From Candidatus Micrarchaeaceae archaeon (GTDB lineage: Archaea > Micrarchaeota > Micrarchaeia > Micrarchaeales > CABMGC01): a stretch of DNA of 40,407 nt. Below the pieces are notes generated by a model. That model ran no database searches. It saw nothing but the letters and a program-made list of their open reading frames with translations, and was not told where the DNA came from. Below, piece after piece: positions 6,919 through 35,551 of the stretch; positions within the stretch are counted from its first letter, which is position 1; each line of letters starts with the position of its first letter. The stretch covers positions 1 to 40,407 of the forward strand of contig JAVYWZ010000008.1 of assembly GCA_038877255.1 (NCBI GenBank). Direction: 5' to 3'. A program made the translations under genes and the position numbers.

Positions 6919-7146
6919 TTACCTTACATGTATGGGCTTGTCCTCTCTAGTAGTGTCAGAAAGTCTAATAATATCATTTTTCTTTACATAACCAACTATA
7001 TTTCGCCTTATTACCCTGCCTTTGTCATTGCCGTCAAGTATCTTGCACATGACCTGCTTTACCGAGCCGAACATGCCTGTAGTCTGGTCAAATACTTCCA
7101 CTACCTCTGCAAGGTAGCCATCAAACTTTCTCTGTTCTTCAGCCAC
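6919..7146 (-). CDS. rps28e: 30S ribosomal protein S28e
   Basis: AEVVEV...[24 protein letters not shown]. Confidence 0.95.
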
Positions 7147-7153
7147 TTAATCA

Positions 7154-7633
7154 TCACGCTTGCTGCTGTTTTGAATCTTTGGTCTGTGTTTGCTTTGCTT
7201 GTGTTTGTTTTGCTTGTGCAGGCTTTGTTTGTGCAGGCTTCGCCTGCGTCTGTGCTGGTTTTTCTTCTACTTGTGAAGCAGCACCTGCAGTTGAATTATA
7301 CCATGTCATTATTTCTTTTAGCACTGCGCTTGCTGAGCCAGCCTTCTCGATAGCCACAGAAGAGCACTGTACGTTAAGGCCTGCCGCCTTGCCTAAATCA
7401 ATCTTTGCAGGCACATACACTATTGGTGTTTTGTGCTGCTCGCAAAGCCCTGGCAGATGCATTACAACTTCCTTTGGGCTCACGTCGTTTGCCACTACAA
7501 CGAGAGTAGCAAGGCCGCGTTCAAGATCCTTGGTGACTTCATTTACCCCTTTTCTTATAATGCCGTCTTGTTTTGCCAGCTTTATCGCTGACAACACTTT
7601 ATCGACTATTTCTTTTGGTGTTTCCTCTGGCAT
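7154..7633 (-). CDS. rpl7ae: 50S ribosomal protein L7Ae with Q/T/A/K/P-rich repeat tail
   Basis: IRKGVNEVTK..ERG.A.LVVVA.DV.P.EVV.HLP.LC; start moved to MPEET (GAGG RBS). Confidence 0.95.
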   Translation of the reverse strand: MPEETPKEIVDKVLSAIKLAKQDGIIRKGVNEVTKDLERGLATLVVVANDVSPKEVVMHLPGLCEQHKTPIVYVPAKIDLGKAAGLNVQCSSVAIEKAGSASAVLKEIMTWYNSTAGAASQVEEKPAQTQAKPAQTKPAQAKQTQAKQTQTKDSKQQQA

Positions 7634-7777
7634 ACAAAAACCTCGTATCATTGGCAAAAAGCAGTACCAATAGTTATTATTTATAGGCAACGTATTTAAA
7701 AGTATGCTGCTCTTTATGCAGAATAAGAGCATGGCTAGCGTCTTGCTGCCTGACGCACCTTGACATTTGAGCATAGG

Positions 7778-8431
7778 CTATTCAAGCATAAATGTAAATG
7801 CTATTATATCTTCAAAAAATACGTGTTTTGCTATTTTCGCTTTGAGCACATAGCCGTAATTATTTGCCTGCTTCAAGAGCTTCTCTAAATTGCTAAACGA
7901 GCTTGCCGAAAGCACAACTGCGCCATTTGGCGTCAAATGGCTCTTTGCTTCTTTCAAAAACTCTAGCGAAAGCTCTACGCCTTCATCGCCGCCGCTAAGC
8001 ATCTCTGCCTCATGTACTGGTTCCTTTGGGTCGCGCCTCAGGTATGGCGCGTTGAACGCAATTATTTCAAAATAACCATTCACATTTTCGAACAAATCGC
8101 TCTTGATTACAGTGCATTTCTGTTTCAGCTTATTATTTAGTGCAGTGTTCTCTTTTGCAATGGCAACAGCGTCATCGCTTTTATCTACGAGCACTACCTT
8201 AGAAACAACGCTGCTCTTAGCGGCAAAGAGGCCGATAATGCCCGTGCCTGTGCCCATGTCAAGAACTCTTATTTCCTTAATGCCAGACTTTTCCATTTCG
8301 TTTAGGCATTTGTTGAGTGCTTCGATCACTAGGAACGTGTCGTCTTCCGGTTCGTATGCCTTGTCAATAGTATTTAGGATGATGCCATTGAATTTGTACA
8401 AATGCTTCTTATCTTTTTTATGCAAGTCCAT
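7778..8431 (-). CDS. prmC: HemK2/PrmC-type glutamine methyltransferase
   Basis: YEPEDDTFL, VLDMGTGTG, FNAPY (NPPY variant), GG..G, FFE. Confidence 0.85.
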   Translation of the reverse strand: MDLHKKDKKHLYKFNGIILNTIDKAYEPEDDTFLVIEALNKCLNEMEKSGIKEIRVLDMGTGTGIIGLFAAKSSVVSKVVLVDKSDDAVAIAKENTALNNKLKQKCTVIKSDLFENVNGYFEIIAFNAPYLRRDPKEPVHEAEMLSGGDEGVELSLEFLKEAKSHLTPNGAVVLSASSFSNLEKLLKQANNYGYVLKAKIAKHVFFEDIIAFTFMLE

Positions 8432-8514
8432 CACGCCTGCGCATAAATTATGCCACTTTTATTGTGCGCATTATCAGGCACATATCTTATCATATTTTAT
8501 ATAATAAGTATAAG

Positions 8515-8594
8515 TGTGCAATGCTGTAAATGTGAAACGCTGCAAATGTTAAACGCTGCAAATGTGCAATGTTTTAAGTGTGTGATGTCGTATG
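8515..8594. repeat. Degenerate 16-bp tandem repeat (4-5 units) in divergent intergenic region
   Basis: TGTGCAATGCTGTAAA / TGTGAAACGCTGCAAA / TGTTAAACGCTGCAAA / TGTGCAATGTTTTAAG / TGTGTGATGTCGTATG. Confidence 0.75.
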
Positions 8595-9164
8595 TCACTT
8601 GTGCTGTTGCTGTTGCGTGCGTCAAAAGAATACAGTTATGGAAGCAGGTCTTATGTGCCTGTCGAAAAGATTATAAAAAAAAGCACAGTACTTCGCATAA
8701 TTTCCCCTTACATCGATCCGTACTATGCTGAATTTTTGATTAGGCACGCAAAAGGCAAGCGCATTCGTATAATTTCTTCATCGATAAGCAAGAGTGCGAA
8801 GGCAAAACTGAAGAGGCGCTCATTTTCAAAATTTGTGGCATTTGTTGCATTTCTTTTAGTGCTAAACATGTTTTTGGCACACGGGCAGCCTGCGCTAGCG
8901 TTCATATCTCTAATCTGCTCGCTAATATACTTGCTTGTTTATCTAGAGGATTACGAGACTAAGAAGGGCATTCTGCTTAAAGTACCAAGGCGGTTCGTGC
9001 ATGCAAAAGTATACATAGGCGATTCTGCTGCTGTTGAAGGATCTGCTAATTTGACATTCATGGGCATGCACAAAAACATAGAACAAACCCGGTTTATACA
9101 AAACAGTGAAGAAGTTGCTATTCTAAAGAACGAGTTTGACAAGCTCTGGCACAGGCTCGGCTAA
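8592..9164 (+). CDS. Single-HKD phospholipase D-superfamily protein with internal TM hairpin
   Basis: IISPYID, HAKVYIGD (HxKxxxxD), GSANLT, N.E, F..LW; two hydrophobic helices in the middle; start codon uncertain. Confidence 0.8.
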   Translation: MSLVLLLLRASKEYSYGSRSYVPVEKIIKKSTVLRIISPYIDPYYAEFLIRHAKGKRIRIISSSISKSAKAKLKRRSFSKFVAFVAFLLVLNMFLAHGQPALAFISLICSLIYLLVYLEDYETKKGILLKVPRRFVHAKVYIGDSAAVEGSANLTFMGMHKNIEQTRFIQNSEEVAILKNEFDKLWHRLG

Positions 9165-9167
9165 CAC

Positions 9168-9836
9168 TTATTCAAACGTTATTTCCAATGGCCCGGAATA
9201 GTTTTGGTCTGGAGATTTAAGGTAAATTGATACCACAAAGCTATTGCTGCTCGCTACCTCGAACGGCGTCTGCGGTTCTGTTTTTATTACGCTGAAAGGT
9301 GCGCTTGCTCTTACTGTTTTTACTTTATCTCCTTCATGCAGTATTGTAAGCAACTGAACATCTTGTTTTATTGTATCGCCCTTATTTATGTACATGCTTC
9401 TTGCAGAATCCTCAACCGTAAAGCTCTTGCCTGCCGCTGAAAGCTTTACTCTGTTTATGCTTATGTGTACTGCATCTGGTGTCTTTGCCTGCATCTCCAA
9501 AAAAAGCGGTCCGGAATAAGCTACATCCGGAGCACGGAGTCTTAGCACAATTTCAGTGCTTTGCATATATGAAATTATTATTGGCAAAGAAGGGCTCACC
9601 GACACTAGCGTGAACGGCGCCTTTACCGAGATCGCATCAATTCTTAGATCTGGTCTTTTAATATTGTCAATATCGAGGTCGCTTGCCGTCTTGTTATGAA
9701 ACGGTATTCTGATCTCGAATTCCTTTTGCACCACTTTAAGCCCCTGAAGCTGGTGCACTTCATTCATGTATTTTATATTTATGCTTGTTATTTCTGCAAT
9801 TTTATTTTTTCTAAAAAACTTTCTTACACTGAACAC
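9168..9836 (-). CDS. Hypothetical protein with two internally repeated beta-rich (Ig-like) domains
   Basis: APFTLVSVSP.LP...LRAPDVAYSGPL versus APFSVIKTEP.TP...LKSPDQNYSGPL. Confidence 0.75.
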   Translation of the reverse strand: MFSVRKFFRKNKIAEITSINIKYMNEVHQLQGLKVVQKEFEIRIPFHNKTASDLDIDNIKRPDLRIDAISVKAPFTLVSVSPSLPIIISYMQSTEIVLRLRAPDVAYSGPLFLEMQAKTPDAVHISINRVKLSAAGKSFTVEDSARSMYINKGDTIKQDVQLLTILHEGDKVKTVRASAPFSVIKTEPQTPFEVASSNSFVVSIYLKSPDQNYSGPLEITFE

Positions 9837-9887
9837 GAAAACACCACTTTTATTTACTTATGTTTTAAAATATATTAATGTGGTTTT

Positions 9888-10349
9888 ATGGCCGAGGAAG
9901 GGGACAAGGCACCAGATTTTGAACTCGTGGGCAATGATAACAAGAAGCACACACTTTCGGAGTTCAAGGGAAAGCGCGTTGTTGTTTATTTTTACCCGAA
10001 GGATAATACGCCGGGCTGCACAGCCGAAGCCTGTTCATTCAGGGATTCCATAAAGGAAGTAAGAAGCCTAGGAGCAGAAGTGATAGGAATAAGCAAGGAT
10101 ACCATTGAATCGCACAGCAAGTTTTCAGGCAAATACTCGCTTAATTTCCTGCTGCTTTCCGACCCTAATAGCAAAACAATAAAAGCGTTTGGAGCATATG
10201 GTAGCAGAGGCATTTTCGGATTTGGCACGCTCCGCAAAACATATGTTATAGGAACTGATGGAAAGATAGAGCGCATATTCGAAAATATAAAACCGGAAGA
10301 ACACGCTAAAAAAGTCATAGAGTATTTGAAGGGCTTCAAAAAGGCGTGA
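9888..10349 (+). CDS. bcp: Peroxiredoxin BCP/PrxQ
   Basis: APDF, VYFYPKDNTPGCTAEAC. Confidence 0.95.
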   Translation: MAEEGDKAPDFELVGNDNKKHTLSEFKGKRVVVYFYPKDNTPGCTAEACSFRDSIKEVRSLGAEVIGISKDTIESHSKFSGKYSLNFLLLSDPNSKTIKAFGAYGSRGIFGFGTLRKTYVIGTDGKIERIFENIKPEEHAKKVIEYLKGFKKA

Positions 10350-10353
10350 TAAA

Positions 10354-12885
10354 TTGAAATCGCGAGAAACATTGGGCAAAAACATACTCCCAAAAGAATA
10401 CAAAATTACAATAGAGCCTGATTTCAAGCTATTCTCTTTTAAAGGCGAAGAAGAGATAAGCATGAGCATAGGCGCGCCAACCAGCGCAATAAAAATGAAT
10501 GTAAACGGCATCAGAATAAGCAAAGCTACTGTTATAGACTCGAAGGGCTCTGCACAGAGTGCGGGCATTTTATACAATTCAAAGAGACAGACAGTGTCGC
10601 TTAGTCTCAAAAACAAAATAGTTGGCAGTGCAAGAGTGCTTTTGTCATTCTCCGGCAAGATAAATGACTCTCTCGCAGGCATGTACAAAAGCAGCTACAC
10701 CTATTCCGGCAAGCAGCAATATGTGCTTACTACGCAGTTCGAGGCGCCTGATGCGCGCAGGGCATTTCCCTGCTTTGACGAACCAGAATTAAAGGCAGTT
10801 TTCAAAATATCCCTGCTGATTGATAACGACAAAGACGCTATCTCAAATATGCCTATAAAGAAAACGCAGCAGAAAGGCAGCAAGAAGCTCGTTATCTTTG
10901 AGCCTACCCCGAGAATGTCAACTTATCTTGTTTATATCGGCGTTGGCAAGTTTGAATATGTTAATGGCAGGCTTGGCAAACTCAGGATACGTGCAGTGAC
11001 AACACTCGGCAAGCGTTCAATGGCAAAGCTTCCTGTTGCATACGCCAAGAAATTCATACGTTTTTACGAAAACTACTTCAACGTTAAATATCCGTTGCCA
11101 AAGCTCGACCTTATTGCAGTGCCTGACTTTGCGATGGGTGCGATGGAAAACTGGGGTGCCATAACGTTCAGAGAGCTCGACATGCTGTGCGATGAAAACT
11201 CATCTGTTGCTGCAAAGCAAAAGGTTGCAATAACGGTAGCGCACGAGCTTGCTCATCAGTGGTTTGGCGACCTTGTTACAATGCAGTGGTGGAATGACCT
11301 CTGGCTTAATGAGAGCTTTGCAACTTTTATGAGCTACAAGGCAGTAAACGCTGCATTTCCTGAATGGGAGATGAACAAGAGATATGTTCTTGATACTATA
11401 GCTACTGCGCTGTCTGCAGACTCTTTGAAGAATACGCACCCAATAAGCGTAACTGTAAATACCCCAGGAGAGATCAGCAGTATCTTTGATAGGATAAGTT
11501 ACGAAAAAGGAGGCTCTGTGCTTAATATGCTTGAGGATTATGTAGGCAAAGAGTCATTTAGAAAAGGCCTCAATTACTACTTGAAAAAGCACGCATATGC
11601 AAATGCCACTGCCCATGACTTGTGGAATGCAATAAGCGTTGTTTCTAAAAATAAGGAATTTACAAGCGTGGCAAAGGCGTGGATAACAAAGAAGGGCTAT
11701 CCTGTGCTCAATTTAAGGCGCTCCAAAGGCATGCGCGGAGACGTTCTGGAAATAACACAGAAGAGATTTCTGATAAGCGGCGAATCATCAGGCACATGGC
11801 CTGTGCCCGTGCATTATCTTACCTCTGAAGGAAAAGACTATAGGGTGCTGCTCAACAGCTCTGCCTCAACTTTAAGCGCCAGAAGCGGCTTGTGGACAAA
11901 GCTCAACTACGGGCAAAACGGCCTTTACAGGTCACGCTATTATGGCGATTTATATTCAAGTGTTTTGAGCGCAGCAAGAGAGCACATGCTAAGCGACCTT
12001 GACGTATGGGGCTTAGAAGATGACATGTTTGCGCTTACAAGAAGCAGCGTGATTAGCGCCAAAGAGTATCTTGACAACGTCATGGAGTACTTCTTAGATG
12101 CTGGTTATCCTGCAAACATAAATACGATAGGCCATTTGAACTGGATCTACATGATGCTTTATGGCGCAGAAGGCGACCTGCCAATTCGTGCAACTCACGC
12201 GCTAGAAGACTACTGTTTGCACGTTATCAGGAAACTTGGGTTTAGACCAAAAGAAGGAGAAAAAACTACAGATAAAAATACAAGGAGCGCCGCGATACTT
12301 GGTCTTGGCATAGCCGGCAATAAGAAGGCGATAAACTTCGTGTCAAAAGAATTTTCAAAGCGCAAGGCGAATGGCACTATAGATTCCGATACCAGAAGCA
12401 CTGTGTACATGCTTTCGGCATGGAATGGCAATGCGAATACGTTCAAAGAGCTCAGAAAACTGTATGAACGAGCAGTGCAGCTTGATGAAAAATACGAGTT
12501 GCTTGCCGCACTTGCCGGATTCCAAAACAACGTTCTTATCAGAAAGGCGTTCTCGCTCGTCTTTTCCAAAAGCGTCAAGTTGCAAGATTCATTCATATTG
12601 CCAATGGCAGCAGCTACAAATCCAGCTGCAAGGCAGTACTTGCTTGATTGGACTCTTTCGAATTGGCGCAAGATGATGAATTTGTACCCCGAGAGCATCG
12701 GCATGCTGAGCCGCTTTGTCAATAATCTTGGCGTGCTGAACAGCGAATTCGCAGAGGCAAGGCTTGTCAAATTTTTTAAGAACAGGCAAAACATGCGCGA
12801 CGATATCGAAAAAGAGGTGCGCATAGCGCTTGAACGAATAGCTGCAAATGTAAAATTCGTAAAAAAGAATTTAGGCGCTACCTGA
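10354..12885 (+). CDS. M1 aminopeptidase (tricorn-interacting factor F2/F3-like)
   Basis: TQFE..DARRAFPCFDEP, GAMENWG, HELAHQWFG..V...WW..LWLNE, SYEKG. Confidence 0.95.
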   Translation: MKSRETLGKNILPKEYKITIEPDFKLFSFKGEEEISMSIGAPTSAIKMNVNGIRISKATVIDSKGSAQSAGILYNSKRQTVSLSLKNKIVGSARVLLSFSGKINDSLAGMYKSSYTYSGKQQYVLTTQFEAPDARRAFPCFDEPELKAVFKISLLIDNDKDAISNMPIKKTQQKGSKKLVIFEPTPRMSTYLVYIGVGKFEYVNGRLGKLRIRAVTTLGKRSMAKLPVAYAKKFIRFYENYFNVKYPLPKLDLIAVPDFAMGAMENWGAITFRELDMLCDENSSVAAKQKVAITVAHELAHQWFGDLVTMQWWNDLWLNESFATFMSYKAVNAAFPEWEMNKRYVLDTIATALSADSLKNTHPISVTVNTPGEISSIFDRISYEKGGSVLNMLEDYVGKESFRKGLNYYLKKHAYANATAHDLWNAISVVSKNKEFTSVAKAWITKKGYPVLNLRRSKGMRGDVLEITQKRFLISGESSGTWPVPVHYLTSEGKDYRVLLNSSASTLSARSGLWTKLNYGQNGLYRSRYYGDLYSSVLSAAREHMLSDLDVWGLEDDMFALTRSSVISAKEYLDNVMEYFLDAGYPANINTIGHLNWIYMMLYGAEGDLPIRATHALEDYCLHVIRKLGFRPKEGEKTTDKNTRSAAILGLGIAGNKKAINFVSKEFSKRKANGTIDSDTRSTVYMLSAWNGNANTFKELRKLYERAVQLDEKYELLAALAGFQNNVLIRKAFSLVFSKSVKLQDSFILPMAAATNPAARQYLLDWTLSNWRKMMNLYPESIGMLSRFVNNLGVLNSEFAEARLVKFFKNRQNMRDDIEKEVRIALERIAANVKFVKKNLGAT

Positions 12886-12919
12886 AAATGTTTTTAATCT
12901 TTCTATTAGAAAGGGTAAT

Positions 12920-13966
12920 ATGGCAATATACCATACCTTTATCACGCTCTTGGTTCCTGCTGTAGCTGCGTATGTAATTACCCTAATCTCTACAAAATTT
13001 CTTTCAGGCTATTTGTTCGAGTCAGGCGTATTCGAAGAAGACCAGAACAAGGGCAGGCTTGTAAGATTGCCAAGCAGCCTCGGCCTTGCAGTAGTGTTCG
13101 GCACAGTAGTTGGAATTCTTACTTATGCATTCGGAGTGAGCTTTCTTGTTAATTCTCAGCGCGCAGTGCTTGACGTAAGAGACCTTTTTGCAGTAAGCAT
13201 GTCGCTGCTACTTATTTCGCTTGTCGGCTTTCTTGATGATATAAATGTCAAGAAAAGGCGTGTGAACGCCACCGAAATAAAATCGTTCAAGAAGGGTCTT
13301 AAGCAGTGGCAGAAACCGTTACTTACAATATTAGGCGCGCTGCCATTAATGGCCATAAACGCGGGCGTGAACGTAGTCAGGGTGCCTTTCATTGGCAACA
13401 TATCTCTTGGGTTGTGGTATCCGTTGCTTGTTCTTCCGTTGGCAATAATTTTTGCATCTAACGCAGTAAACCTTCTTGGCGGCTTTGACGGCCTTCAGCC
13501 AGGCATGGGCGCAATAGCGCTAGCAGGTCTATTTGTTTATTCTGTGATTTATGGCACACACATGGGTGCGCTCATCTCAGCAGTAATGCTCGCATCGGTG
13601 CTTGCGTTTTTGCCGTTCAACCTTGGCAAGGTCATACCGGGCGATAGCTTTACCTACGCACTTGGAACCGGGCTTATAGCAGTAATGGTCTTAGGAAACG
13701 CAGAGGCGTTTGGCATAATAATATTCATTCCTTGGATTATAGAATTTTTGCTTCACCTTAGAAAAGGGTTTAAGGTCAGCGACCTCGGCATAAAGCAGAA
13801 GGATGGAACTTTTAAGGCGCCTTACGGCAAGCACATATACAGCCTTACCCACCTGATAATGAATATAAAAAAGGTGCGCGAAAGAGACGTTTCTGCCTAT
13901 TTATCGCTTATAGAATTCGCTTTCGTAGTACTTGCATTTCTTATGAAGCTTGGCGGCTTCCTGTGA
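12920..13966 (+). CDS. aglH: UDP-GlcNAc:dolichol-P GlcNAc-1-P transferase (MraY/GPT family, AglH-like)
   Basis: Multi-TM; GFLDD, NAVN.L.GFDGL, FN....PGDS, YSLTH. Confidence 0.8.
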   Translation: MAIYHTFITLLVPAVAAYVITLISTKFLSGYLFESGVFEEDQNKGRLVRLPSSLGLAVVFGTVVGILTYAFGVSFLVNSQRAVLDVRDLFAVSMSLLLISLVGFLDDINVKKRRVNATEIKSFKKGLKQWQKPLLTILGALPLMAINAGVNVVRVPFIGNISLGLWYPLLVLPLAIIFASNAVNLLGGFDGLQPGMGAIALAGLFVYSVIYGTHMGALISAVMLASVLAFLPFNLGKVIPGDSFTYALGTGLIAVMVLGNAEAFGIIIFIPWIIEFLLHLRKGFKVSDLGIKQKDGTFKAPYGKHIYSLTHLIMNIKKVRERDVSAYLSLIEFAFVVLAFLMKLGGFL

Positions 13967-14166
13967 TAGGCGGGCTTTGCAAGCATAACGTCTGCTTTTC
14001 TTATTAGCGTTCTTCTGCCAGCGTGCTTTGCGTATGCTTTAGCTCGCTCAGTGACAAGCTCTGTAAGCTGCTCGAGTTCCTTTTCAAGGTTCAATACTGC
14101 ATCTTCTGTTACCTTTTCAGCTCCTGCTTCTCTTATGAACTGCTCAATATCATACAGACTATACAC
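13897..14166 (-). CDS. Second histone-fold protein, acidic, with C-terminal tail
   Basis: IREAGAEKVTEDA....A..YAKHAGRRTLI..ADV.LA; GTG start at 14166 after G-rich RBS; overlaps convergent aglH by 70 nt. Confidence 0.85.
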   Translation of the reverse strand: MYSLYDIEQFIREAGAEKVTEDAVLNLEKELEQLTELVTERAKAYAKHAGRRTLIRKADVMLAKPAYHRKPPSFIRNASTTKANSISDK

Positions 14167-14262
14167 CCTTCCCCCCAAGCAACCACCAAACAAGAAGTAA
14201 GACTATTTCCAAAGAAAAGAATAAAAAGAAATTGACTAAGTTCCGAATAGTGGAATATCAAA

Positions 14263-15522
14263 CTACTTGTGCTTCAAGAGAGCACCTATGCCGCCGAACC
14301 CCATGAGGAACTCCTTTCCATAAGAGCTTTCATTTGAAACGAATATTGTTTCTGTGCCGTTTTTGTCAGCTATGCCTATCAGTTCCTCTATGCCATCTCT
14401 AAGCTCAACTGTATTGTAAACTCCTCCGCAGCCGGCATGGAGTCTGTCCTTGGCAGGATCTTCATTGTTTGCAATTTCCATTTTTCTTTTTTCAAATGCC
14501 TCTTCGCTTTCATCAGCGCTGCGCTTGATGGGCACTTCTATCTCATCATTGCACTTGTTGCATCTTCGCTTGGCAATATAATAATCGTATTCTATGTTTA
14601 TTATCAGCGTAGACGTATTGTTGGCGAGCAGCGCATTCTTTGTATTGTCATAGCCATATACTGCAAGCCCGTTGCTCGATACCTCCCTGATAAACTGCTC
14701 TAATATGCGCCTCTCCTGTGACGCCTCCTGCTCTTTCAGAATATCAGATGCCTTGTCCACGAGCTCGTTGAGCCCTGTTTCATCTGTGTAGCCCGTATCA
14801 AAAGAACCAAGGATCTTTATCTGATAATTAAGCTTTTTGGCCTTTTGGAAGTTTTCCTTTGCAGGACCAGGACCTCCTATGATAAGACCTTTTATCTTAA
14901 ACGATTTTTCTTGAAAAATTGAATTAATAAATTCGCTTATCTCTGTGTAATAATAGTCTATGTCCTCCTCTCTTGCTCTGGCGAATCTCCTTGCGCTTTG
15001 GCCTCCTTTTTTCATTTTTGCGTGAGCCATAGAGCGGAGCCGCTTTATGACCTGTATATGGGTGCCTTTGAGCGTTGCGATTGTCGCTTCGCGGCCATCC
15101 AGTACTAGCAACACAAAAGTATCGCTTGATTCAACCATTGTTTCTATCGGATCTAGCAAGAAAGTCGAATCACATCTGTAAATGTTAACGCGTATAGGCT
15201 CAGGCGGCTCCATAGAGAAAATTTCAATGTCTTCCCTGCCTGGATCTGGAGAGATATTGCCGCAGAATACTATGAGGCCATTTTTTGGCGTTTCGCGGTA
15301 CAGCTTTAAGTATTGGATTATCTTGTCTATTGCGCTTTGAACATTTGTGCGCGTGGTCTTAGACTTTATGTTGCCTGACTGATTGTATTCTTGTCTTAGC
15401 TTTGCAATCTCCTCACTCATTTGGAACCCGGCAGGCACATAAATGCTTATCAGCTCTGTTCCGTAGCCACGGATAGATTTAAGCCTCTTTATCTCTTTCA
15501 ACAAGTCATATGTTTCTTTCAT
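14263..15522 (-). CDS. prf1: Peptide chain release factor aRF1
   Basis: GTELISIY, NIKS, YRCD, GGQS, FGGIGA.L. Confidence 0.97.
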   Translation of the reverse strand: MKETYDLLKEIKRLKSIRGYGTELISIYVPAGFQMSEEIAKLRQEYNQSGNIKSKTTRTNVQSAIDKIIQYLKLYRETPKNGLIVFCGNISPDPGREDIEIFSMEPPEPIRVNIYRCDSTFLLDPIETMVESSDTFVLLVLDGREATIATLKGTHIQVIKRLRSMAHAKMKKGGQSARRFARAREEDIDYYYTEISEFINSIFQEKSFKIKGLIIGGPGPAKENFQKAKKLNYQIKILGSFDTGYTDETGLNELVDKASDILKEQEASQERRILEQFIREVSSNGLAVYGYDNTKNALLANNTSTLIINIEYDYYIAKRRCNKCNDEIEVPIKRSADESEEAFEKRKMEIANNEDPAKDRLHAGCGGVYNTVELRDGIEELIGIADKNGTETIFVSNESSYGKEFLMGFGGIGALLKHK

Positions 15523-15536
15523 AAAAATCGCTAGTG

Positions 15537-16835
15537 CTAACCTATCTTGTTCTTGTGCATGTAAGGAACAAGCACGTCTGGAACTGTTATAGTACCATCA
15601 TCGTTTGCATAATTTTCTATTATTGCGACCATCGTTCTTGTTGTAGCTATCGCAGTGCCGTTGAGCGTATGCACGTACTTTCTTTCGTTTCCTTCATCGT
15701 ATTTTATATCAAGCCTTAAAGACTGCCAATCGGTGCAGTTTGAGCAAGAAACAACCTCGCGGTATTGGCCTTGCGATGGCATGTACGCTTCTATGTCATA
15801 TTTCTTTGCTGCAACGCTACCTATATCCCCTGTGCATATGTTAACAACACGGTAAGGCAATCCAAGCTTCTGGTTTAACATCTCTGAGTTTTTGACTATT
15901 TCCTCAAGAATATCCCATGAATCCTCTTGCCTTGAAAAGACGAATTGCTCAACCTTATAGAATTGGTGCACGCGAAATATGCCCTTTGTATCTTTTCCAT
16001 GCGCGCCTGCTTCTCTCCTGAAGCATGGGCTCACCCCAACAAACTTCTTTGGCAGTTCCTTTGCCGATAGCACCTTGCCTGCATACATTGCTGCTAACGG
16101 ATGCTCAGAAGTAGCTATCATAAAAAGTTCATCATTAACATGCTCATAATCTGCCTTTTCTTTTGCCTCGCCAGGCTCCGCAACTTTATAAAGCATCTCC
16201 TCGAAATCGCCCATTGTAGTTACGCCACGGTAGTACTCGCGCTTTAGCATTAGGGGCGGAGCTATAAGCGTATACCCTTTGCCTGTAAGCTCGTCTATTG
16301 CAAAGCGTATGAGCGACTGCTCCAAAAGAGCAATATCACCCTTCAGGTAGTAAAATCTTGCGCCAGAAACCTTTGATGCTTGGTCCAAATCTACAAGACC
16401 GAGCTTGCCGAGCACGTCTACGTGATTTTTGGTAGTTTGCGTTTTTATAGTGCCCCACTTCCTTACTTCGACGTTATCGCTGCTATCTTTGCCATATGGT
16501 ACTGATTCATGAAGTACGTTTGGCAGATTCCAGAGAAGTGACTCAATCTTTTTTTGGTATTGCTCAAGCTGGCTCTCAAGTTCATCTATTTGCTCTTTAG
16601 TAGAAGCAAGCTTTTCCAGCTCTTCTTTGCTGGGCTCTTTGCCCTGCTTCTTTGCGTTAGAAACTGCTTCGCTACCTTTGTTGCGGTCAGACCTGAGCTT
16701 CTGCACCTGCACCATGAGCTTTCTTGATTTCTCGTCGTACTCCTGCAGCTCGTCGATTGGAAAGTCGCTCTTCCTTTTCTCAAGCGACTTTTTTATCGCG
16801 TCAAAATTATCCCTGACATATTTTGTTGTTATCAT
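15537..16835 (-). CDS. serS: Seryl-tRNA synthetase (class II, standard type)
   Basis: LPN....VP.G, TSEHP, FRREAG, RVHQF.KVEQF, EVVSCSNC, HTLNGT. Confidence 0.97.
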   Translation of the reverse strand: MITTKYVRDNFDAIKKSLEKRKSDFPIDELQEYDEKSRKLMVQVQKLRSDRNKGSEAVSNAKKQGKEPSKEELEKLASTKEQIDELESQLEQYQKKIESLLWNLPNVLHESVPYGKDSSDNVEVRKWGTIKTQTTKNHVDVLGKLGLVDLDQASKVSGARFYYLKGDIALLEQSLIRFAIDELTGKGYTLIAPPLMLKREYYRGVTTMGDFEEMLYKVAEPGEAKEKADYEHVNDELFMIATSEHPLAAMYAGKVLSAKELPKKFVGVSPCFRREAGAHGKDTKGIFRVHQFYKVEQFVFSRQEDSWDILEEIVKNSEMLNQKLGLPYRVVNICTGDIGSVAAKKYDIEAYMPSQGQYREVVSCSNCTDWQSLRLDIKYDEGNERKYVHTLNGTAIATTRTMVAIIENYANDDGTITVPDVLVPYMHKNKIG

Positions 16836-16905
16836 ACAAACACTTAGTTATTGCACAAGCACACTGTAATTGAAACACCTAGTATATTTTATTACTTACT
16901 TTTAT

Positions 16906-17447
16906 ATAATGTGGCGTAAAACCCACACCCTTCAGGGGTGGGATATAAGCCACTGCAGAAATGTGCAGAAATGCATATAAATTTTGAGATGCATAAGGCC
17001 ATAACCATGATCGTCATGAAAACTGCATATAAATACCGTGCATATCCTTCAAAGGAGCAAAAGGCAAAATTAGATAGTCAAATGTTCCTCGCAAAAAATC
17101 TCTACAATCTTCTTCTTGAAAAATCGAAAGCGTATTACAAAGAAACAGGGAAGACGCTCACTAAATGCGGAAACGTGCAGGAAATGACCCTGAATAAAAG
17201 AACATTCATATGCGAGAAATGCGGAAATAAGGAAGACAGGGACATAAATGCATCAATGAACATACTTGAGCGAGGAATACTCGCAAGAGCTACCGAAGGA
17301 CATTCGGGAAGTCAAGCCTGTGGAGACGATGTAAGACCTTCCGCAAGGGAGGCAGTTGCCGACGAAGCAGGAACTATACGGGTGGCATCATGACAGCAAA
17401 TAAAGCCACCCTGGAAGCCCACGAATTCATTCGTGGGAGGATGTCAC
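16906..17447 (+). mobile_element. Non-autonomous IS200/IS605 (IS1341-like) element with internally deleted tnpB and intact ends
   Basis: Left-end hairpin GTGGC..CCCACACCCTTCAGGGGTGGG..GCCAC (16911-16953); right-end hairpin CCCACGAAT/ATTCGTGGG ending GGATGTCAC; candidate TAM TTTAT at 16901-16905 (left boundary inferred). Confidence 0.85.
17007..17393 (+). pseudogene. tnpB: tnpB deletion derivative (N-terminal HTH fused in frame to Zn-ribbon/RuvC-III)
   Basis: KTAYKYRAYPSKEQ...LYN..L joined near 17163 to KCG...RTFICEKCG..EDRDINASMNI; RuvC-I/II absent. Confidence 0.9.
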
Positions 17448-17471
17448 AAATTATTGCGAGCACGTTGCAAG
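17290..17471 (+). ncRNA. Putative omegaRNA (reRNA) scaffold plus flank-derived guide
   Basis: ACCGAAGGACATTCGGGAAGTCAAGCCTGTGGAGA and right-end hairpin are typical of tnpB 3' ends; 5' boundary approximate. Confidence 0.55.
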
Positions 17472-17557
17472 GCAGGGGTGGCAGAGTTTGGCCAAATGCG
17501 GCGGGCTTAGGCCCCGTTCCCTTAGCGGGTGCGTGAGTTCAAATCTCACCCCCTGCA
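17472..17557 (+). tRNA. tRNA-Leu(TAG), no intron, CCA not encoded
   Basis: Acceptor GCAGGGG/CCCCTGC, anticodon stem GCGGG/CCCGT with CT-TAG-GC loop, long variable arm, GTGAG-TTCAAAT-CTCAC, discriminator A. Confidence 0.95.
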
Positions 17558-17640
17558 CTTATTAGGCACTAATGCCTCTAAGCCCACCTGCTGCGCAGTA
17601 TAGCGATACGAACCCGTAGGCCCATGATTCTGCATTCTGA

Positions 17641-18219
17641 TTATTGGCGCATAACGCTGCGCAGTGGCGCCGCAATTTCTGGTTTCTTTAAAATCGCATA
17701 GATAAATTCCAATACGTTGCCGTTGTATCTGTACAGCGCTTTTTCTACCGCAAGGCACTGTGCCCTTGCGCCATCTGCATTTTCTTGGTCTGCTGCGTAA
17801 TACGTTAGGTATTCAATTACGTCTTCTTTACTGGGTTTCTCATTGCCAGAAAGCTTGTTCGCGGTGTAAGAGCCCATAAGCTCTGCTATGCCTTCCTCAA
17901 AATTCATGTTGCTCAAATAGTCGTGCTGCACTATGTGGCTCAGTTCGTGGCCGAGCGTGCAGTCGATCTCAAAGATGTTCAAGTACATGCTTGAGAAATA
18001 TGGCAACACGATACCTACTGTTCTGTTTTTAAAGTCGGCAAATCCTCCTACGCGCCATTCGTTTTCCTCAAATTCAAGCTTTACGTCATTCACGTCTTCA
18101 AAGCCCATGCGCACAAATAGCGACTTGCACCTTTCGAACTCGCTTCTGCATAGCTGTTCCAGCGCTTCTTTGCCATCTAGCGTTTGTTTTTCTTTTTTAT
18201 CCTGCAAACGGCTGTGCAT
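17641..18219 (-). CDS. Putative zincin (HEXXH) metallopeptidase, orphan
   Basis: GGFA, TLGHELSH, downstream FEEGIAE. Confidence 0.7.
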   Translation of the reverse strand: MHSRLQDKKEKQTLDGKEALEQLCRSEFERCKSLFVRMGFEDVNDVKLEFEENEWRVGGFADFKNRTVGIVLPYFSSMYLNIFEIDCTLGHELSHIVQHDYLSNMNFEEGIAELMGSYTANKLSGNEKPSKEDVIEYLTYYAADQENADGARAQCLAVEKALYRYNGNVLEFIYAILKKPEIAAPLRSVMRQ

Positions 18220-18339
18220 GCAACCATATACATAATTGGCGTGAAAATATTAATCTGACGCGTTATTGTTATTGGGCTTGCCTCATCTAAATCAATATTT
18301 TTCTATTTTGCAGGATTTGCATCTTGATTTTGTTTTTAT

Positions 18340-19542
18340 TTATAATTGGCGTTCGATGCTTTCTATGCGAGCAAGCTCATTTATTTTGGCTATTCGCTCT
18401 CCCCCTACGATCCCGCATTTTATGTACTCTGAACCCAATGCTACCGCAAGATGCGACATGAATGCATCAATCGTTTCTCCGCTCCTGTGAGAAACTACTG
18501 TTTTTATGCCGTGTGAATGCGCAAGCTCGACCGTTTCAAGAACATCACTTAGCGTACCGACCTGATTAACCTTTATGAGTATCGCAGTAGTAGCACCTTT
18601 GCTTATGCCATTGTCGAGCCTCTTCTTGTTTGTAGCGTAAATATCATCGCCAACAATCAGTGCTTGATCTTTTAACGCCTTAGTGATCTCAGCAAATCCT
18701 TCAGCATCATTGGAATCCATCGGGTCTTCCACATATGCAATTTTGTTGCGTTGTGCCAAATCCAAAAGAAAAGAAATGTATTCTTGCCGATCAAGTATTC
18801 TTTTGCCATTGTCAAAAACATAATTTCCGTTTTTGTAAAACTCGCTTGCAGCACAATCAATGCCTATGTTTGTGCCATTGCTTGAAGCTTGATCGCTTGC
18901 CAGCGCAAGCGCAGAAGAGTCGTCAAGTTTAGTGTTCCAAGCGTTTTCAATGTTAAGCCCTGTCGCTAAGTCCTTCGATTGCAAATAAGCGCCTATTGCG
19001 CTGTGTATCACTATATTCTTTTTTGCGTTTTCCATAACGCTGCCGCTCGAGGTTGCAAGAAGAATCTCTTGTATGCTCATCTTATTGTGCGAATGCACTC
19101 CGCCGCCAATCACGTTTCCAAGCAATCCAGGAATTTTCTTCTTGATGCCGAGCTTCTTTGTGAAGTTTTCGTATATGTATTGGTATAGCTCCAGATTCGC
19201 TTCAGCGGCGGCGAGCTTAGCCGCAGCTATTGAGATTGCAGTAGCGGCGTTGCCGCCTATTTTTGAAAAGTTTTCAGTGCCGTCTATTTCGTGCAGCATG
19301 CTATCTATTCCTTTTTGTTCCGGCTCCATTCCTACAAGCTTGCTTTTGTATTGCTTGAACTCCTCTACGCTCTTTTCTGCAGAATTGCCTGCAAATGGCA
19401 CTGCTTCATATTCGCTTCTACTTGTGCCGCTTGGAGCCATCGCTTCTGCACTATTGCCATTATTATCAAAAAGCCTTGCAGCAAGCGTTTCTTTGCCGCG
19501 CGAATCAAGAATAACCCGCAGCTCTGCATTTGTTATGTTCAT
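18340..19542 (-). CDS. eno: Enolase
   Basis: ILDSRG, PSGTS, NVIGGG.H, IQE, IDCAAS, EDP, VGDD, IKVNQ.GT, SHRSGET, GER..K.NEL. Confidence 0.96.
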   Translation of the reverse strand: MNITNAELRVILDSRGKETLAARLFDNNGNSAEAMAPSGTSRSEYEAVPFAGNSAEKSVEEFKQYKSKLVGMEPEQKGIDSMLHEIDGTENFSKIGGNAATAISIAAAKLAAAEANLELYQYIYENFTKKLGIKKKIPGLLGNVIGGGVHSHNKMSIQEILLATSSGSVMENAKKNIVIHSAIGAYLQSKDLATGLNIENAWNTKLDDSSALALASDQASSNGTNIGIDCAASEFYKNGNYVFDNGKRILDRQEYISFLLDLAQRNKIAYVEDPMDSNDAEGFAEITKALKDQALIVGDDIYATNKKRLDNGISKGATTAILIKVNQVGTLSDVLETVELAHSHGIKTVVSHRSGETIDAFMSHLAVALGSEYIKCGIVGGERIAKINELARIESIERQL

Positions 19543-19578
19543 GAAATGCACACACAATCAATCTCAACATTTTCCTTT

Positions 19579-20850
19579 TCAGCATTTATATTCTATTATC
19601 TTGCTTATTAGCTTTTTGCCTTCGAAAACGCCAAGGCTGCCGCTGCTTCCTATCTTTTCATTGTACTGCATTCCGTCTCCATCTTTGCACGATTTGTTGT
19701 AAATCATCACAGGCACAGGATCTGAAGAATGTGCCTTTAGTGCGCATGGCGTCGAATGGTCTGCAGTGACGCAGAGGGTGACATTATCATTAAGTATCTT
19801 ATTCAGGTTTGCGAAGAAACCTGTGTCTATTTCGGCAAGCCTCCTGCTCTTCTCTATGGCATCACCATCATGACCTGGCTCATCTGGCCCTTTTATGTGC
19901 ACATACATGAACTCGCAAGCATTTGCATTTGCCAAAACAAGCCTTGCAAGTTCAGCGTACGCTTTGATGCTATTTTTGCCTTTGTTTTTTGCATGCGTTG
20001 AGCTAATCCTTTTCATGCCAAGCAGTCTCGCTATTCCCGTCTCAACAGGCATCTCTGTTATAAAGGCGAATTTCATGCCAAACTTCTTGCTTATTGGCTT
20101 TACATTGGGCAGGCCTACGCCCGCATCGCGTATAAGAAGCGCATTTGCCTCAAGCATATGCCTATTCCTTCTTTTTTCATTTACCTTATTGCTTGCAAGC
20201 TTCGTTATCACTTTTTCTATGAACTCATTGAGAAGATGCGCTGTGAATCTTGCGCTGATTGACTTGTCAAATGGCCTTATTACGGGCATCTTGTTTGAAG
20301 CATTGCTTACAGCTATGGAGATGCTTCCTTTTCTTACATAGCCTATGTCGCCATTTGAGACGTTTGCGGATAAGTTAATGCCTTTCGGGTAGAACGCCAC
20401 TACGCCCCTGTGGCCTACTGTTGCCTTGAACTTGAATTTCACATTTTCATTTAGCCTTATGCTGTTTATCGACTTTTCAAGCTCCTTCGCTTCGCTTTGC
20501 AGTACGTTGCGGCCTGCGCGTCTGTCTATTATGTTCCTGTTTCTGTCTATCGTAGCGAAGTTGGCGCGAAGCGCAAGAGTGTTAGAGTATATCTTCAGTC
20601 CGCTTCCAAGCGCCTCGAGAGGCCCCCTGCCAGTATAATGCTTTACATCATAGCTCAACAATGAAAACACCGCAGAATCGGATTCAGGCGCTATGCCTTT
20701 AGCAACAGTGTACATGCTGCCCATGCTTGCATATCTTGCAAGTTTGTTGAGGTTGTGCATTTTTGCATGTTCAAGCGGCGTTTCATTCCCAATTGTAGGA
20801 TTTGGTCTATCCGGTGCGCCATCGAGCACAACCAACAGATATTTTAGCAT
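19579..20850 (-). CDS. apgM: Archaeal 2,3-BPG-independent phosphoglycerate mutase
   Basis: LDG..DRP, TPLE.A, PESD, GRGPLEA, HIKGPDEPGHDG, TADHSTP, HS.DPVP. Confidence 0.95.
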   Translation of the reverse strand: MLKYLLVVLDGAPDRPNPTIGNETPLEHAKMHNLNKLARYASMGSMYTVAKGIAPESDSAVFSLLSYDVKHYTGRGPLEALGSGLKIYSNTLALRANFATIDRNRNIIDRRAGRNVLQSEAKELEKSINSIRLNENVKFKFKATVGHRGVVAFYPKGINLSANVSNGDIGYVRKGSISIAVSNASNKMPVIRPFDKSISARFTAHLLNEFIEKVITKLASNKVNEKRRNRHMLEANALLIRDAGVGLPNVKPISKKFGMKFAFITEMPVETGIARLLGMKRISSTHAKNKGKNSIKAYAELARLVLANANACEFMYVHIKGPDEPGHDGDAIEKSRRLAEIDTGFFANLNKILNDNVTLCVTADHSTPCALKAHSSDPVPVMIYNKSCKDGDGMQYNEKIGSSGSLGVFEGKKLISKIIEYKC

Positions 20851-32392: not shown

Positions 32393-32834
32393 GTGACTAA
32401 ATTAGTATATCAATTGAGCCGAAACGAAGATGATGGCGGATATTTCCTCTCAGCAGAATGGGCTCAAGCCAATATGGGCAAATTAAAAGCCCCTGAATTG
32501 GTTTTAGGAGAATTCAGAGACATTGATATATAACGAGCTTATCATAAACGGAGGTCCTGAAATCAAAATCCAGGGAGTTGTTTATAAATCCGAAAAGTTA
32601 AAAGGAGCGGCAGAAAAGGTAGCGAAGTGCGCAGAAGAAATGTTAGGCCAAAAAATACCCATCGTATATATAAAAGAATCAGGGAACGAAGATAAAAAAC
32701 AGTCAGATGATGATGAGCAGACAAAATCATTGCGAGCCACAGTTAAGCGATTACAGAGGGATAGTGCTATAATGCAAAGTCATTATGAATTTAGAGAATG
32801 GCCACCTTCTAAACTCCATTATCCTTTATCCTAG
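32393..32834 (+). pseudogene. Hypothetical gene apparently split by a frameshift in an (AT)n run
   Basis: Two adjoining ORFs overlap at GATATATAAC (32525-32534): ...EFRDID then IYNELIING... Confidence 0.4.
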
Positions 32835-33801
32835 TGGCTCTATACACCTCGTAGAGCCCTAAGGCCTGTGGATCAATGTTTACAAGTTCTATATCGTTAT
32901 TGCCAAGCTTCCTTTCTCCTCTCATGAAATCATTCATGTACAATCCATGCATTGCACCAACGACGATCAAAAGCGTACTTTTTTCATCAATGTGATCAAG
33001 TATGTTATTGACATTGTCTTTCATTATTTTGTTTCTTATACCATCGGCTTCTTGAGGTGGTAGATTTGCGAGATTCACGGTATCAGGCATGTCTATCGGC
33101 TCTACTGTTACTCGCTTGCCGTACTGCTCCTCTAAGCCGGTTAATACGCGCAACATGCCTAAATACCACTCTGGAAACGGTGATTTGCTTGCAAGGAATC
33201 TGTAATCAAATTTATATAAATTATTAAAGAGTTCTCTGGTATCGCTATCTGAATAGCCTTCAAATGCAATAATCACCGAATGCCCTGTACTTTCTATTAT
33301 TTTCCTGGCAATCTTCTCAACCTTTTCAGGTTCTGAGGCGTCCGAATGGCGCGATAAAAACATTATTACTCTCTTGTACACATCTACATTAGAAACGTCT
33401 ATATTCGACAAATCTGTATTTTGGGTTACTTTCTTTGCATTTATATTTTCTTTACCAGCCTCTTTCTCTATATTTTTTCTGCCCTCATCGTATAACAAAA
33501 ATAGATCAGACCCTTGCGAATAGTTAGACCAATTTTTATCTAGAAAATTCTTTACTTTTTCTATATACTTTTGATCAAAAACAAATATACCACAAAAACT
33601 TTCTGCTGTAGCTGGCTTATTAGAAATGGCAATAATTTGTTTGTTGTCATTAAAGAACCTAAAGTATTTGTTTTCAGGATCATACACATATTCCATACCT
33701 AAATCCTCAGATAGTTTTTGGGAAATTGTTAATCTATCCTGCGATTCGGCTTTGTTTTCTTCCCAAGGCTCAGGTTTTTTAACTTTTTGCTTTTCGCTCA
33801 T
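32809..33801 (-). CDS. EreA/ChaN/TIKI-superfamily protein (putative metallopeptidase/hydrolase)
   Basis: Ordered motifs SRHSD..E, IAFEG, PID, RNKIM, LIVVGAMH; GGTGA RBS. Confidence 0.65.
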   Translation of the reverse strand: MSEKQKVKKPEPWEENKAESQDRLTISQKLSEDLGMEYVYDPENKYFRFFNDNKQIIAISNKPATAESFCGIFVFDQKYIEKVKNFLDKNWSNYSQGSDLFLLYDEGRKNIEKEAGKENINAKKVTQNTDLSNIDVSNVDVYKRVIMFLSRHSDASEPEKVEKIARKIIESTGHSVIIAFEGYSDSDTRELFNNLYKFDYRFLASKSPFPEWYLGMLRVLTGLEEQYGKRVTVEPIDMPDTVNLANLPPQEADGIRNKIMKDNVNNILDHIDEKSTLLIVVGAMHGLYMNDFMRGERKLGNNDIELVNIDPQALGLYEVYRATRIKDNGV

Positions 33802-33962
33802 ATTATCACCTTCGTAAATGTTTATGTTTTTGCTGATATTTAAATATTCTCAAAATTAAAATTTGTTAAATAAAGTTAACAATTTTGCAAACTGCTGTTT
33901 TGCATGACGACGAAAAATAGAAAGGTAGTCTTGAAACCTTATGCGACCCGCAATTACGATTC

Positions 33963-34070
33963 TGAGGTGATCTATCCGCAGGTTTCCCTACCGATACCTT
34001 GTTATGACTTAGGCCCCCTCATAGGACTCTAATTCAAAAACATCTTATGATGACTATAAAATACTTCACA
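33963..34070 (-). pseudogene. Degenerate fragment of the 16S rRNA 3' end (h44 tip to h45)
   Basis: Minus strand GAGGGGGCCTAAGTCATAACAAGGTATCGGTAGGGAAACCTGCGGATAGATCACCTC versus universal AAGTCGTAACAAGGTA.CCGTAGGGGAACCTGCGG.TGGATCACCTC; upstream hairpin TATTTTAT-N7-ATAAGATG fits the h44 tip. Confidence 0.85.
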
Positions 34071-34160
34071 CCTATATCTACGTATTAGAATGTTGACTTT
34101 TCTATTATAACATATCGCTACTTTTTATCATTTACCAATTACATTACTTCCACAATTTTC

Positions 34161-34530
34161 TCACGCATATCGCATCCAATACGCAATGAGGCATGCGAAC
34201 ACATACACAGCGACTTTCTTTATGCCGATAAATCGATTCTTCGCAATACCGAATAGTTCTTTCAGCCTCGAAAAATGCGCTCCACGGCCCACCTCTTGCC
34301 ATAGTTTGGATCTTTCGGCTCTATTGTCTTGAGATATTTATTTCCACTTCTTGAGATAACGGGCGTTATGCCGTCATATCACAGTTGTTTATATATCTTT
34401 GATGAATGGTATTGCGCATCTGCGAGAAACTTCGCACCATACTGCAGCACAAGCCATTCTTCACTTTGTTGTAAAATGGCGTGAACATCTTCTTGTCGTT
34501 AGTGTTTGCAGGGATCAACTCTGCAGCAAT
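34161..34530 (-). pseudogene. C-terminal remnant of an IS4/IS5-superfamily transposase
   Basis: AAELIPANTNDKKMF..., AKFLADAQY, internal TGA and frameshift, YGKRWAVERIFSRLKE; homologous to 233-948. Confidence 0.85.
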
Positions 34531-34634
34531 TGATGCGCTTAGTCAATTTACAAAATCTCAAATATCTTTAAACAAATTTCGATTTTTAGAAACACTTAAA
34601 TATCAGATATGGCGTTATTTCTTACGATGATGAA

Positions 34635-35144
34635 ATGAGCGAAAAGATGACAAATGGAGGGGTAAATGAAGACTCATCCGCCATAAAGAAGTTAGCCAGA
34701 AACAGTGACGAACGTTTGGAAGAGCAAATAGCCTCAGCTAAAAAAGAGCTTATAGACTGGTTTTCTAATAACGTGGATGCTTTTAACCTTTTTAGAACTA
34801 GTGTAGAAGAATGGGTAAAAGATTATATAGAAAGACGAAAGAGAGCTTATAAGGAAGAGGAATACAAGTATAAAATCTTCAAATTCTATGGAATTGAAAC
34901 CAAGCCTCCTGAAAATCAAACGGAAACGTCAGAAGATATGGTAAGAAACGCACTTCCTGATCACATTGTTTTATGGCTCTCTACTGACTACGACAGTAGT
35001 AAGGCGCCATTCATTCGTAACCTTGAGGACTTTGAGGCTAAATATGATAAACACATTATAAATGAGGCGCTTGTAGAAATAGCCCTTGAAATGGCCAAAG
35101 AAACAGGCTTAATCCAAAAAATACTCTACGGTGGTCTCACTTAA
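34635..35144 (+). CDS. Hypothetical acidic helical protein
   Basis: 169-aa ORF with TATA box and RBS-like leader; begins MSEK like 33801. Confidence 0.75.
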   Translation: MSEKMTNGGVNEDSSAIKKLARNSDERLEEQIASAKKELIDWFSNNVDAFNLFRTSVEEWVKDYIERRKRAYKEEEYKYKIFKFYGIETKPPENQTETSEDMVRNALPDHIVLWLSTDYDSSKAPFIRNLEDFEAKYDKHIINEALVEIALEMAKETGLIQKILYGGLT

Positions 35145-35229
35145 AGAAATGGCCTTTGATATGGCCCTTGAGATTATCCAAGGCCCCCTACAAATAATGC
35201 ACTTAAAGAAATAGCCGTTATGGCCTTTT
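35067..35229 (+). repeat. Three degenerate ~30-bp direct repeats spanning the end of the 34635 gene
   Basis: GCTTGTAGAAATAGCCCTTGAAATGGCC / CACTTAAAGAAATGGCCTTTGATATGGCC / CACTTAAAGAAATAGCCGTTATGGCC. Confidence 0.7.
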
Positions 35230-35551
35230 GAAGTTGCCATGTCTGAGGAAGCAAAAGAAGTGAATGACTAAGAACTGCGGAAGTATAATTACTATGTCTG
35301 AAGCTTAACCAGTAACTAATGATGCAGAGCTTATTAGCATGCATGTCATGTTGATAGTAGTACTGACTGCTTTCCAGCGTTAAATGCGGTGGCAAGGCTA
35401 ATTGAAGAAAAAAGAAGAGATTATTAGAATTTCTAGAAAACTGTTGGAATAAACTCTTGCTAGTAGCTTTACAAATTAGCGAGTACTAGCTCACATTTTG
35501 CAAGAAAAAAGTGTATTTAAATATCAGAAAAGACATATAAAATTTGATTAT

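Follow-up and report, generated by a model that had tools for sequence, protein, structure and literature searches.

Probable relic of a sister-genus rRNA-locus border, with a reused promoter region, in an accessory region of a Micrarchaeaceae genome

An accessory region of a Candidatus Micrarchaeaceae genome contains a short piece of a 16S rRNA gene, whose presence raises the question of where it came from, how it arrived and whether any part of it is still in use. The genome (G000; 713 kb in 30 contigs) has one full 16S gene, at C9:12577-14552. The window, that is, the whole stretch of 40,407 nt that was analysed, is contig C8. The core part of this contig carries an archaeal RNase P RNA at 3115-3353 (minus strand, 95.7 bits) and, at 17472-17557 (plus strand), an 86-nt tRNA with a long variable arm.

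The 16S-derived piece occupies 34052..33962 on the minus strand, is 91 nt long and reads CATCATAAGATG...AAGTCATAACAAGGTATCGGTAGGGAAACCTGCGGATAGATCACCTCAG. It comprises the 3' strand of the h44 tip, h45 and the 3' tail (SSU model positions 1386-1478), with AAGTCATAAC at 34010..34001, GGGAAACC at 33988..33981 and the 16S 3' tail GATCACCTC ending at 33964, all on the minus strand. In BLAST, the region aligned with the full 16S of the same genome over 72 nt at 90% identity (E 1e-22), C9:14479-14550 corresponding to window 34035..33964. The Rfam archaeal SSU model (RF01959) matched the stretch cut at the fragment with 47.7 bits (E 2.1e-12, positions 1386-1478, flagged as 5'-truncated), slightly lower than the gathering score of 50. 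The same model gave no match on 33700-34300 (601 nt with the piece embedded, E<=10), nor did the whole window yield an SSU match at gathering thresholds; the missing match with the embedded piece is a sensitivity limit for an internal piece of 91 nt. The 16S-like piece is real and lies far beyond chance. The initial annotation had recognised a 16S 3' end running from the h44 tip through h45, and both BLAST and the covariance model, which becomes significant once the stretch is cut at the fragment, bear it out. The match had been placed at 33963..34070, about 100 nt, but the last 18 nt of that span (34053-34070) are not 16S. The rest of the 16S is indeed absent at this locus, and the description of the piece as isolated fails, since a second copy lies at C17:848-1139.

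As a fragment, the piece belongs to RF01959 by both sequence and structure. As a functional gene it does not: it has the last 93 model positions only, a G>A change in the h45 loop (the intact form is GGGGAACC) and one non-standard h45 pair. The loop change (33985) and the broken pair (33992) occur in the orphan copies only. These two uphold part of the earlier view that near-invariant sites have decayed. AAGTCATAAC, which had been counted with them, is instead a lineage trait, because the real 16S of the relative G006 has the same letters; variants are found in G000, G018 and G041, the 16S of G000 itself carrying AAGCCATAAC where the orphan has AAGTCATAAC. Among the changes listed, decay is confined to GGGAAACC and one h45 mismatch, and supposedly invariant 16S positions are already changed in the real 16S of this lineage. 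The 1492R-type primer site, in what we take to be the primer sequence, has three mismatches in the orphan and four in the organism's own 16S.

BLAST of 33000-35500 against the whole genome revealed a 294-nt unit (34085..33792) that recurs at C17:848-1139 with 94.9% identity, and the 16S-like piece is the second quarter of it. The order within the unit is a 33-nt stub (34085..34053), the 16S end (34052..33962), an rRNA trailer (33961..33896) and a promoter/start module (33895..33790). The stub (34053..34085, plus strand) consists of the TATA region and the start of a small divergent gene, which has lost its start codon on C8 and is intact at C17:849..514; two further occurrences of the stub are found in the genome G035. 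Directly after one stub copy there, in L026 (G035:C5, about 1378-1552), are three 36-nt repeats with spacers of about 33 nt, resembling a mini CRISPR-like array.

Between the C8 and C17 copies there are 15 differences in 294 positions, distributed as 5/33 in the stub, 7/89 in the 16S part, 1/83 in the trailer and 2/89 in the module. Since their duplication the 16S part has changed significantly more than the trailer and module together (7/89 vs 3/172, Fisher p=0.034), and its changes fall on the h45 loop and stem. The 16S part, normally the most conserved, is here the fastest-changing segment, which is consistent with a passenger, although consensus errors of the metagenome-assembled genome in a 16S-like stretch could inflate the apparent decay. 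The trailer (33896-33960, equivalent to C17:968-1032) is identical at 65/65 nt, next to a 16S part that differs by 8% and a stub that differs by 15%. Either selection or gene conversion has held the trailer and module between the copies, and the 65-nt identity of the trailer could accordingly be read as an unrecognised function or as conversion.

The trailer (33896..33961, minus strand) is homologous to the sequence directly 3' of the real 16S in G006 and G018. It contains a 13-nt block, GTTTCAAGACTAC (33937..33925), complementary to the G006 16S leader, and a T-rich tract at 33924..33911. The 3' flank of the G006 16S is complementary to the leader immediately preceding that gene, perfectly over 13 nt (GTAGTCTTGAAAC) and in further blocks, and is therefore the 3' strand of the pre-16S processing helix, the leader/trailer helix described for archaea (PMC7038931, PMC10351888). 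The likeness of the orphan to this processing stem, with its bulge-helix-bulge motif, ends there: it comes without a complementary 5' leader strand, so no stem forms in cis. The leader and trailer of G000 pair through a different 12-nt block, AGTCTTGAGGAA, whereas the orphan trailers carry the G006-type block; the leader of G000 shares just 9 nt with the complement of that block, which is found in full only in the leader of G006. A blastn-short search for a trailer partner in the genome gave no match longer than 14 nt, and the genome appears to hold no leader-like partner. Predicted leader-trailer duplexes are bulged helices whose energies do not discriminate (-68.1 for the cognate G006 pair vs -64.3 for the G006 leader with the G000 trailer), and exact complementary blocks were used for the pairing in their place.

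The last part of the unit, the promoter/start module (33790..33895, minus strand), contains a TTTGCAAAAT motif, a TATA box TTTAAATA at 33844..33837, an SD sequence GGTGAT at 33810..33805, an ATG at 33801..33799 and about three codons; its consensus and spacing suggest a promoter. G000 has four copies (two on C8, one on C17 and one on C4), fused to unrelated ORFs and reaching about 10 nt into each, and nhmmer found no further copies in the genome below E 0.1. The start codon of the C17 copy has been lost (ATA). The motif likeness of the module to an EF-1alpha promoter with a MAEK start is short, and the spacing is different in G021.

On C8 the ATG of the unit is the start of a 330-aa ORF (32809..33801, minus strand) that is an ORFan: Pfam and NCBIfam returned nothing, and a search among 5.8 billion clusters found the ORF itself only. 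The structural leads, ChaN/TraB/erythromycin-esterase-like models in the Atlas, are weak (TM 0.32-0.48) and name no family. Because the consensus TATA box, 43 nt before the ATG, sits between the 16S piece and the SD and gene, the mRNA of the 330-aa gene would probably have a short SD-bearing leader that excludes the 16S piece. The only TATA box upstream of the piece points to the divergent gene. A second, inverted copy of the module (34544..34646, plus strand) runs into a 169-aa ORF (34635..35144). The two window copies (33790-33894 and 34544-34646) have 71% identity, bracket the IS remnant and the 16S piece, and would each drive an outward-facing ORF (330 aa and 169 aa), an arrangement that could allow inversion.

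The remnant so bracketed is of the IS4/IS5 type (34086..34540, minus strand) and lies directly 5' of the unit, from 34086 onward. Stops and frameshifts interrupt its C-terminal DDE transposase frame (about 34477..34143), and the window frames show a YGKRWAVERIF motif with stops. The frame ends near 34143, about 91 nt from 34052, in agreement with the distance of about 90 nt given earlier for a transposase remnant. Window 34183-34536 has 85% identity to G006:C4, where a 111-aa ORF matches PF01609 (DDE_Tnp_1) at 3.1e-10; this homology places the remnant among the IS4/IS5 transposases, with the matches of the ORF to PF01609 and to the IS5 NCBIfam models all below cut-offs. The terminal 58 nt or so of the remnant are also present as solo repeats on C1, C3, C4, C2, C28 and C6, and two direct pieces of the same IS end bracket the C17 copy of the unit. 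The copies of this element seen in G000, G006 and G035 are C-terminal remnants only.

The source of the unit was sought among relatives. Of 61 related genomes, 51 matched it, nearly always through the 16S 3' end alone; the match continues past that end in G006 (89%, unit positions 34-259), G035 (77%) and G018 (72%). The G006 match is G006:C6:9046-9272, and the real 16S ends within it (Rfam, L006 1-1591), as it does in G018; the same trailer and module stand behind the real 16S in both. With trailer and module as the query against 248 genomes of the order, the trailer part was found in four only (G000, G006, G035 and G018). The tally of the 61 relatives, like that for the 72-nt 16S piece below, includes G050 and G074, which are flagged as unpublished and support no conclusion drawn here. 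A word scan for the 16S-end/trailer sequence retrieved one genome record (L028, a Candidatus Micrarchaeaceae MAG) and 0 records from metagenome contigs.

The initial annotation had left open whether the piece derives from the organism itself, its host or another source. BLASTN against the organism's own 16S and against the relatives answers that it is other, and G006-like. The 16S part agrees with the real locus of G006 at 82/89 positions and with that of G000 at 70/89; for the trailer the figures are 77/84 and 38/104, and the variable h44 tip is of the G006 type. The real 16S genes of G000 and G006 are about 80-88% alike, so that a non-coding spacer 89-92% like the other genus exceeds the likeness of the 16S genes themselves, and horizontal acquisition is its best explanation. 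Genomes of genus g1 are collinear with window 1-20000 at 68-80%, and g2 matches it only in shorter pieces at 66-76%; the host contig thus belongs to g1, and the unit leans more towards g2 than the backbone does. These comparisons place the origin of the orphan, as far as sequence likeness can tell, in a sister genus of the same family. The likeness to G006 is, however, uneven: divergence is much greater from TTTGCAAAAT to the TATA box, and one recent transfer of the entire unit would be too simple an account. The five other g1 genomes have no assembled 16S 3' end and no unit.

An analogous orphan occurs in G035, a genome of the donor-like genus, where one contig holds the stub, 16S end, trailer, module, a weak homologue of the C8 169-aa gene and an IS end; the real 16S of that genome breaks at a contig end, at model position 1343. 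Being just 74-79% like the G000 copies, the G035 orphan points to no particular donor. The 72-nt 16S piece matched 179 of the 248 genomes, six of them more than once. After checking, true extra 16S-end copies are found in G000 and G041 only, and the single match in G035 is an orphan too. The second matches in G034, G040, G110 and G092 were rejected as orphans, being real 16S genes or contig-end overlaps.

We propose, with a probability of roughly 0.65, that the unit is a foreign relic, a DNA-level copy of an rRNA-locus 3' border whose source was a sister genus within the Micrarchaeaceae. Its parts would be the last 91 nt of the 16S, the whole trailer and, as found behind the trailer in that lineage, the region with promoter, SD and start codon. 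The copy would have entered the accessory region together with IS4/IS5-type elements, now dead, and then been duplicated onto C8 and C17; the direction of transfer and its vehicle are suggested by the greater likeness to G006 and by the adjoining remnant. Of the three origins put forward earlier (IS-mediated capture, an att-like scar and a retro-copy), IS-associated capture fits best, because the unit directly adjoins the DDE transposase remnant on C8 and is bracketed by related IS pieces on C17; a retro-copy is refuted, and an att-like scar finds no support in this genome. The 16S part would be a decaying passenger, with no folding partner and no promoter aimed at it, and hence presumably silent. 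The part still used would be the downstream module, giving a TATA box, an SD sequence and an ATG to the unrelated 330-aa ORFan. The relic is most likely harmless, and only its promoter part still seems to be in use.

Recombination at the 16S 3' border does occur in the order. After a complete 16S with its trailer, G041 (L044, G041:C36:66500-71500) has a 96-aa ORF, which brings its own upstream region, and then a second copy of the last 42 nt or so of the 16S plus trailer, about 90% identical; this tandem pair (L044 2405-2510 and 2862-2965) looks like attL/attR or a single-crossover insertion at the border. A relation of the 96-aa ORF to the 330-aa ORF was considered and rejected (5/8 N-terminal identities only, E 0.83). 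In G244 (L058, G244:C3:442400-445400) a 39-nt trailer piece is found again about 1 kb downstream (1143-1181 vs 2229-2351), with two genes between, an 84-aa ORF and a 156-aa GNAT acetyltransferase-like ORF; ORFs reading like a VapBC/PIN pair follow the repeat.

A wider reading, which we regard as speculative and on balance doubtful, would make the 16S 3' end/trailer border of Micrarchaeales a recurrent landing pad for recombination. Genes would be slotted in with duplication of the 16S end and trailer, as in G041 and G244, and the spacer and promoter would be exported between loci and genera as a portable cassette giving a TATA box, SD, ATG and first codons to ORFans. The trailer, kept at 65/65, would serve as a terminator or insulator of upstream transcription.

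A narrower use of the same cases is to regard the G000 orphans themselves as a displaced attR-like or Campbell-type scar: insertion of a gene at the 16S 3' end would have duplicated the 16S end and trailer, and the duplicates would later have moved. The insertions in G041 and G244 agree with this, as do the unconserved sequence downstream of the trailer among five g35 genomes and the spacer of 143 to 1142 nt between 16S and EF-1alpha in five f1 genomes. A likeness to the attL/attR duplications at tRNA and tmRNA 3' ends, which serve as integration sites of elements (10.1101/2020.11.02.365908), lies in the duplicated 3' end of a stable-RNA gene in an accessory region, and the G041 tandem is formally of that kind. 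The flanks of the intact 16S speak against it in this genome: the C9 gene is complete, its trailer co-varies with its leader, and core genes come next (DUF488-like, ribosomal proteins and a tRNA synthetase, read from translations), with no element at the target. The orphans match another genus better than the host target, and there is no common crossover point: the 5' breakpoint is at model position 1386 for G000, some 10 nt further on for G035 and only about 42 nt before the 16S end for G041. Neither the 11 neighbouring window ORFs scanned nor the ORF lists of the G041 and G244 inserts contain an integrase, and a search of the other 247 of 248 genomes for the G041 insert, as a possible circulating cassette, came back empty. 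An att-like or Campbell-type origin of the G000 orphans is thus unlikely.

The foreign relic would also be illusory if reads from the rRNA locus of an abundant relative had been joined to low-depth contigs at shared repeats, during assembly or binning. Stretches like 16S and IS are classic points of breakage and chimerism. In the sequencing run X1, contig depths sum to about 600-3000 over 33814-34627 and to 13-18 on the left flank, and because of this difference the unit and IS remnant, or close relatives of them, are abundant or multi-copy in the X1 community. One X1 contig that fits up to 34052 continues as real 16S-like sequence (a comparison by eye, with 2 differences). A word search of sequencing runs returned three DNA runs of one study and no RNA run, the best of them containing 0.16 of the words. 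Among the contigs from DNA runs, at 90-95% likeness, none bridges 34052/34053 or 33813/33827, and 34702-35071 is mostly uncovered; the word spanning the stub/16S junction had 0 matches in genome contigs and 0 in metagenome contigs. Support for the 34052/34053 junction therefore comes from two contigs of one assembly and from the analogous orphan in the separately assembled G035. Yet C8 and C17 share the truncated junction in copies of the unit with 15 differences in 294 positions and unlike flanks, and two such diverged copies make a chimera unlikely. The unit is just 89% like G006, so it does not simply represent reads of that organism. We consider an artefact quite improbable.

A function for the RNA itself is very improbable. 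A transcript of the piece could act as an anti-SD decoy, as a leader that sequesters the SD of the 330-aa gene in cis, or it could titrate factors that recognise the 16S 3' end or trailer. Were 34052..33790 a single RNA, its minimum-energy fold would pair AUCACCU with the AGGUGAU of the gene's SD (z -2.24; 4/200 shuffles as good), and the perfect conservation of the trailer between the two copies would fit such a role. The initial annotation had likewise seen a possible anti-SD or antisense RNA in this complementarity, but it is a given for any 16S 3' end, and the piece is separated from the SD by the consensus TATA box, while the sole one upstream of the piece belongs to the divergent gene. 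Shuffles fold as well as the 16S part and trailer alone (z -0.58), the 16S part is the segment that changes fastest, the G035 orphan is without the first 26 nt of the trailer, and the C17 copy no longer has a start codon. A retro-copy of mature 16S rRNA, for which nothing speaks beyond the presence of a 3'-terminal piece, is refuted because homology to real rRNA loci runs about 135 nt past the mature 3' end (in BLAST to 33827, through the trailer into the TATA region, with similarity at the SD and start codon seen in alignments only), and the scan of 11 ORFs yielded no reverse transcriptase.

The relic is an ordinary one of a known kind, an rRNA fragment beside a dead IS combined with promoter reuse, and what is informative in it is the sister-genus origin. 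Truncated rRNA-gene fragments are common in bacteria. Like those found beside insertion sequences or in genomic islands, the orphan is a short 3'-terminal piece with a dead transposase adjoining and changes at otherwise fixed positions; unlike them, it comes with a complete trailer and the promoter of the next gene, is nearer to the locus of another genus and is present twice. A broad literature search for orphan 16S fragments found no description of such a case in archaea. The module recalls the putative mobile promoters of prokaryotes (PMC3575422): a very similar promoter region stands away from its original gene, before unrelated genes, in four copies in G000 and also in G006 and G035. It differs in that the reused block includes the SD, the ATG and about three codons, and in that 2/4 of the G000 copies drag along the rRNA piece and trailer that reveal the source.

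The direct importance of the locus is small, since what it contains is the remains of a gene rather than a new RNA. It cleanly marks an exchange of DNA between genera of the Micrarchaeaceae, archaea with small genomes and poorly known gene flow, and the reuse of a promoter/SD/start block before unrelated ORFs is one route by which orphan genes may gain expression. In addition, rRNA contigs of metagenome bins can be broken or wrongly joined at orphan 16S 3' ends, for which the contig-end break in the G035 16S may be compared.

The real rRNA loci showed some further features. The 16S genes of G000 and G006, at 1976 and 1997 nt against 1478 model positions, are about 500 nt longer than the model, and non-homologous inserts of about 400 nt lie at the same place in both (G000:C9:13652-14047 and G006:C6:8211-8630); they are probably an rRNA intron or insertion, and a 200-aa ORF (13535-14137) overlaps the G000 insert. 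EF-1alpha follows the 16S on the same strand in 5/27 loci scanned (L006, L008, L014, L017 and L020, from G006, G018, G021, G011 and G010), with a spacer of 672 nt in G006, 636 in G018, 143 in G021, 422 in G011 and 1142 in G010, a variable slot. The 16S/EF-1alpha linkage is broken in G000, where EF-1alpha lies at C6:34085-35374, behind a 551-aa ORF reading like a tRNA synthetase.
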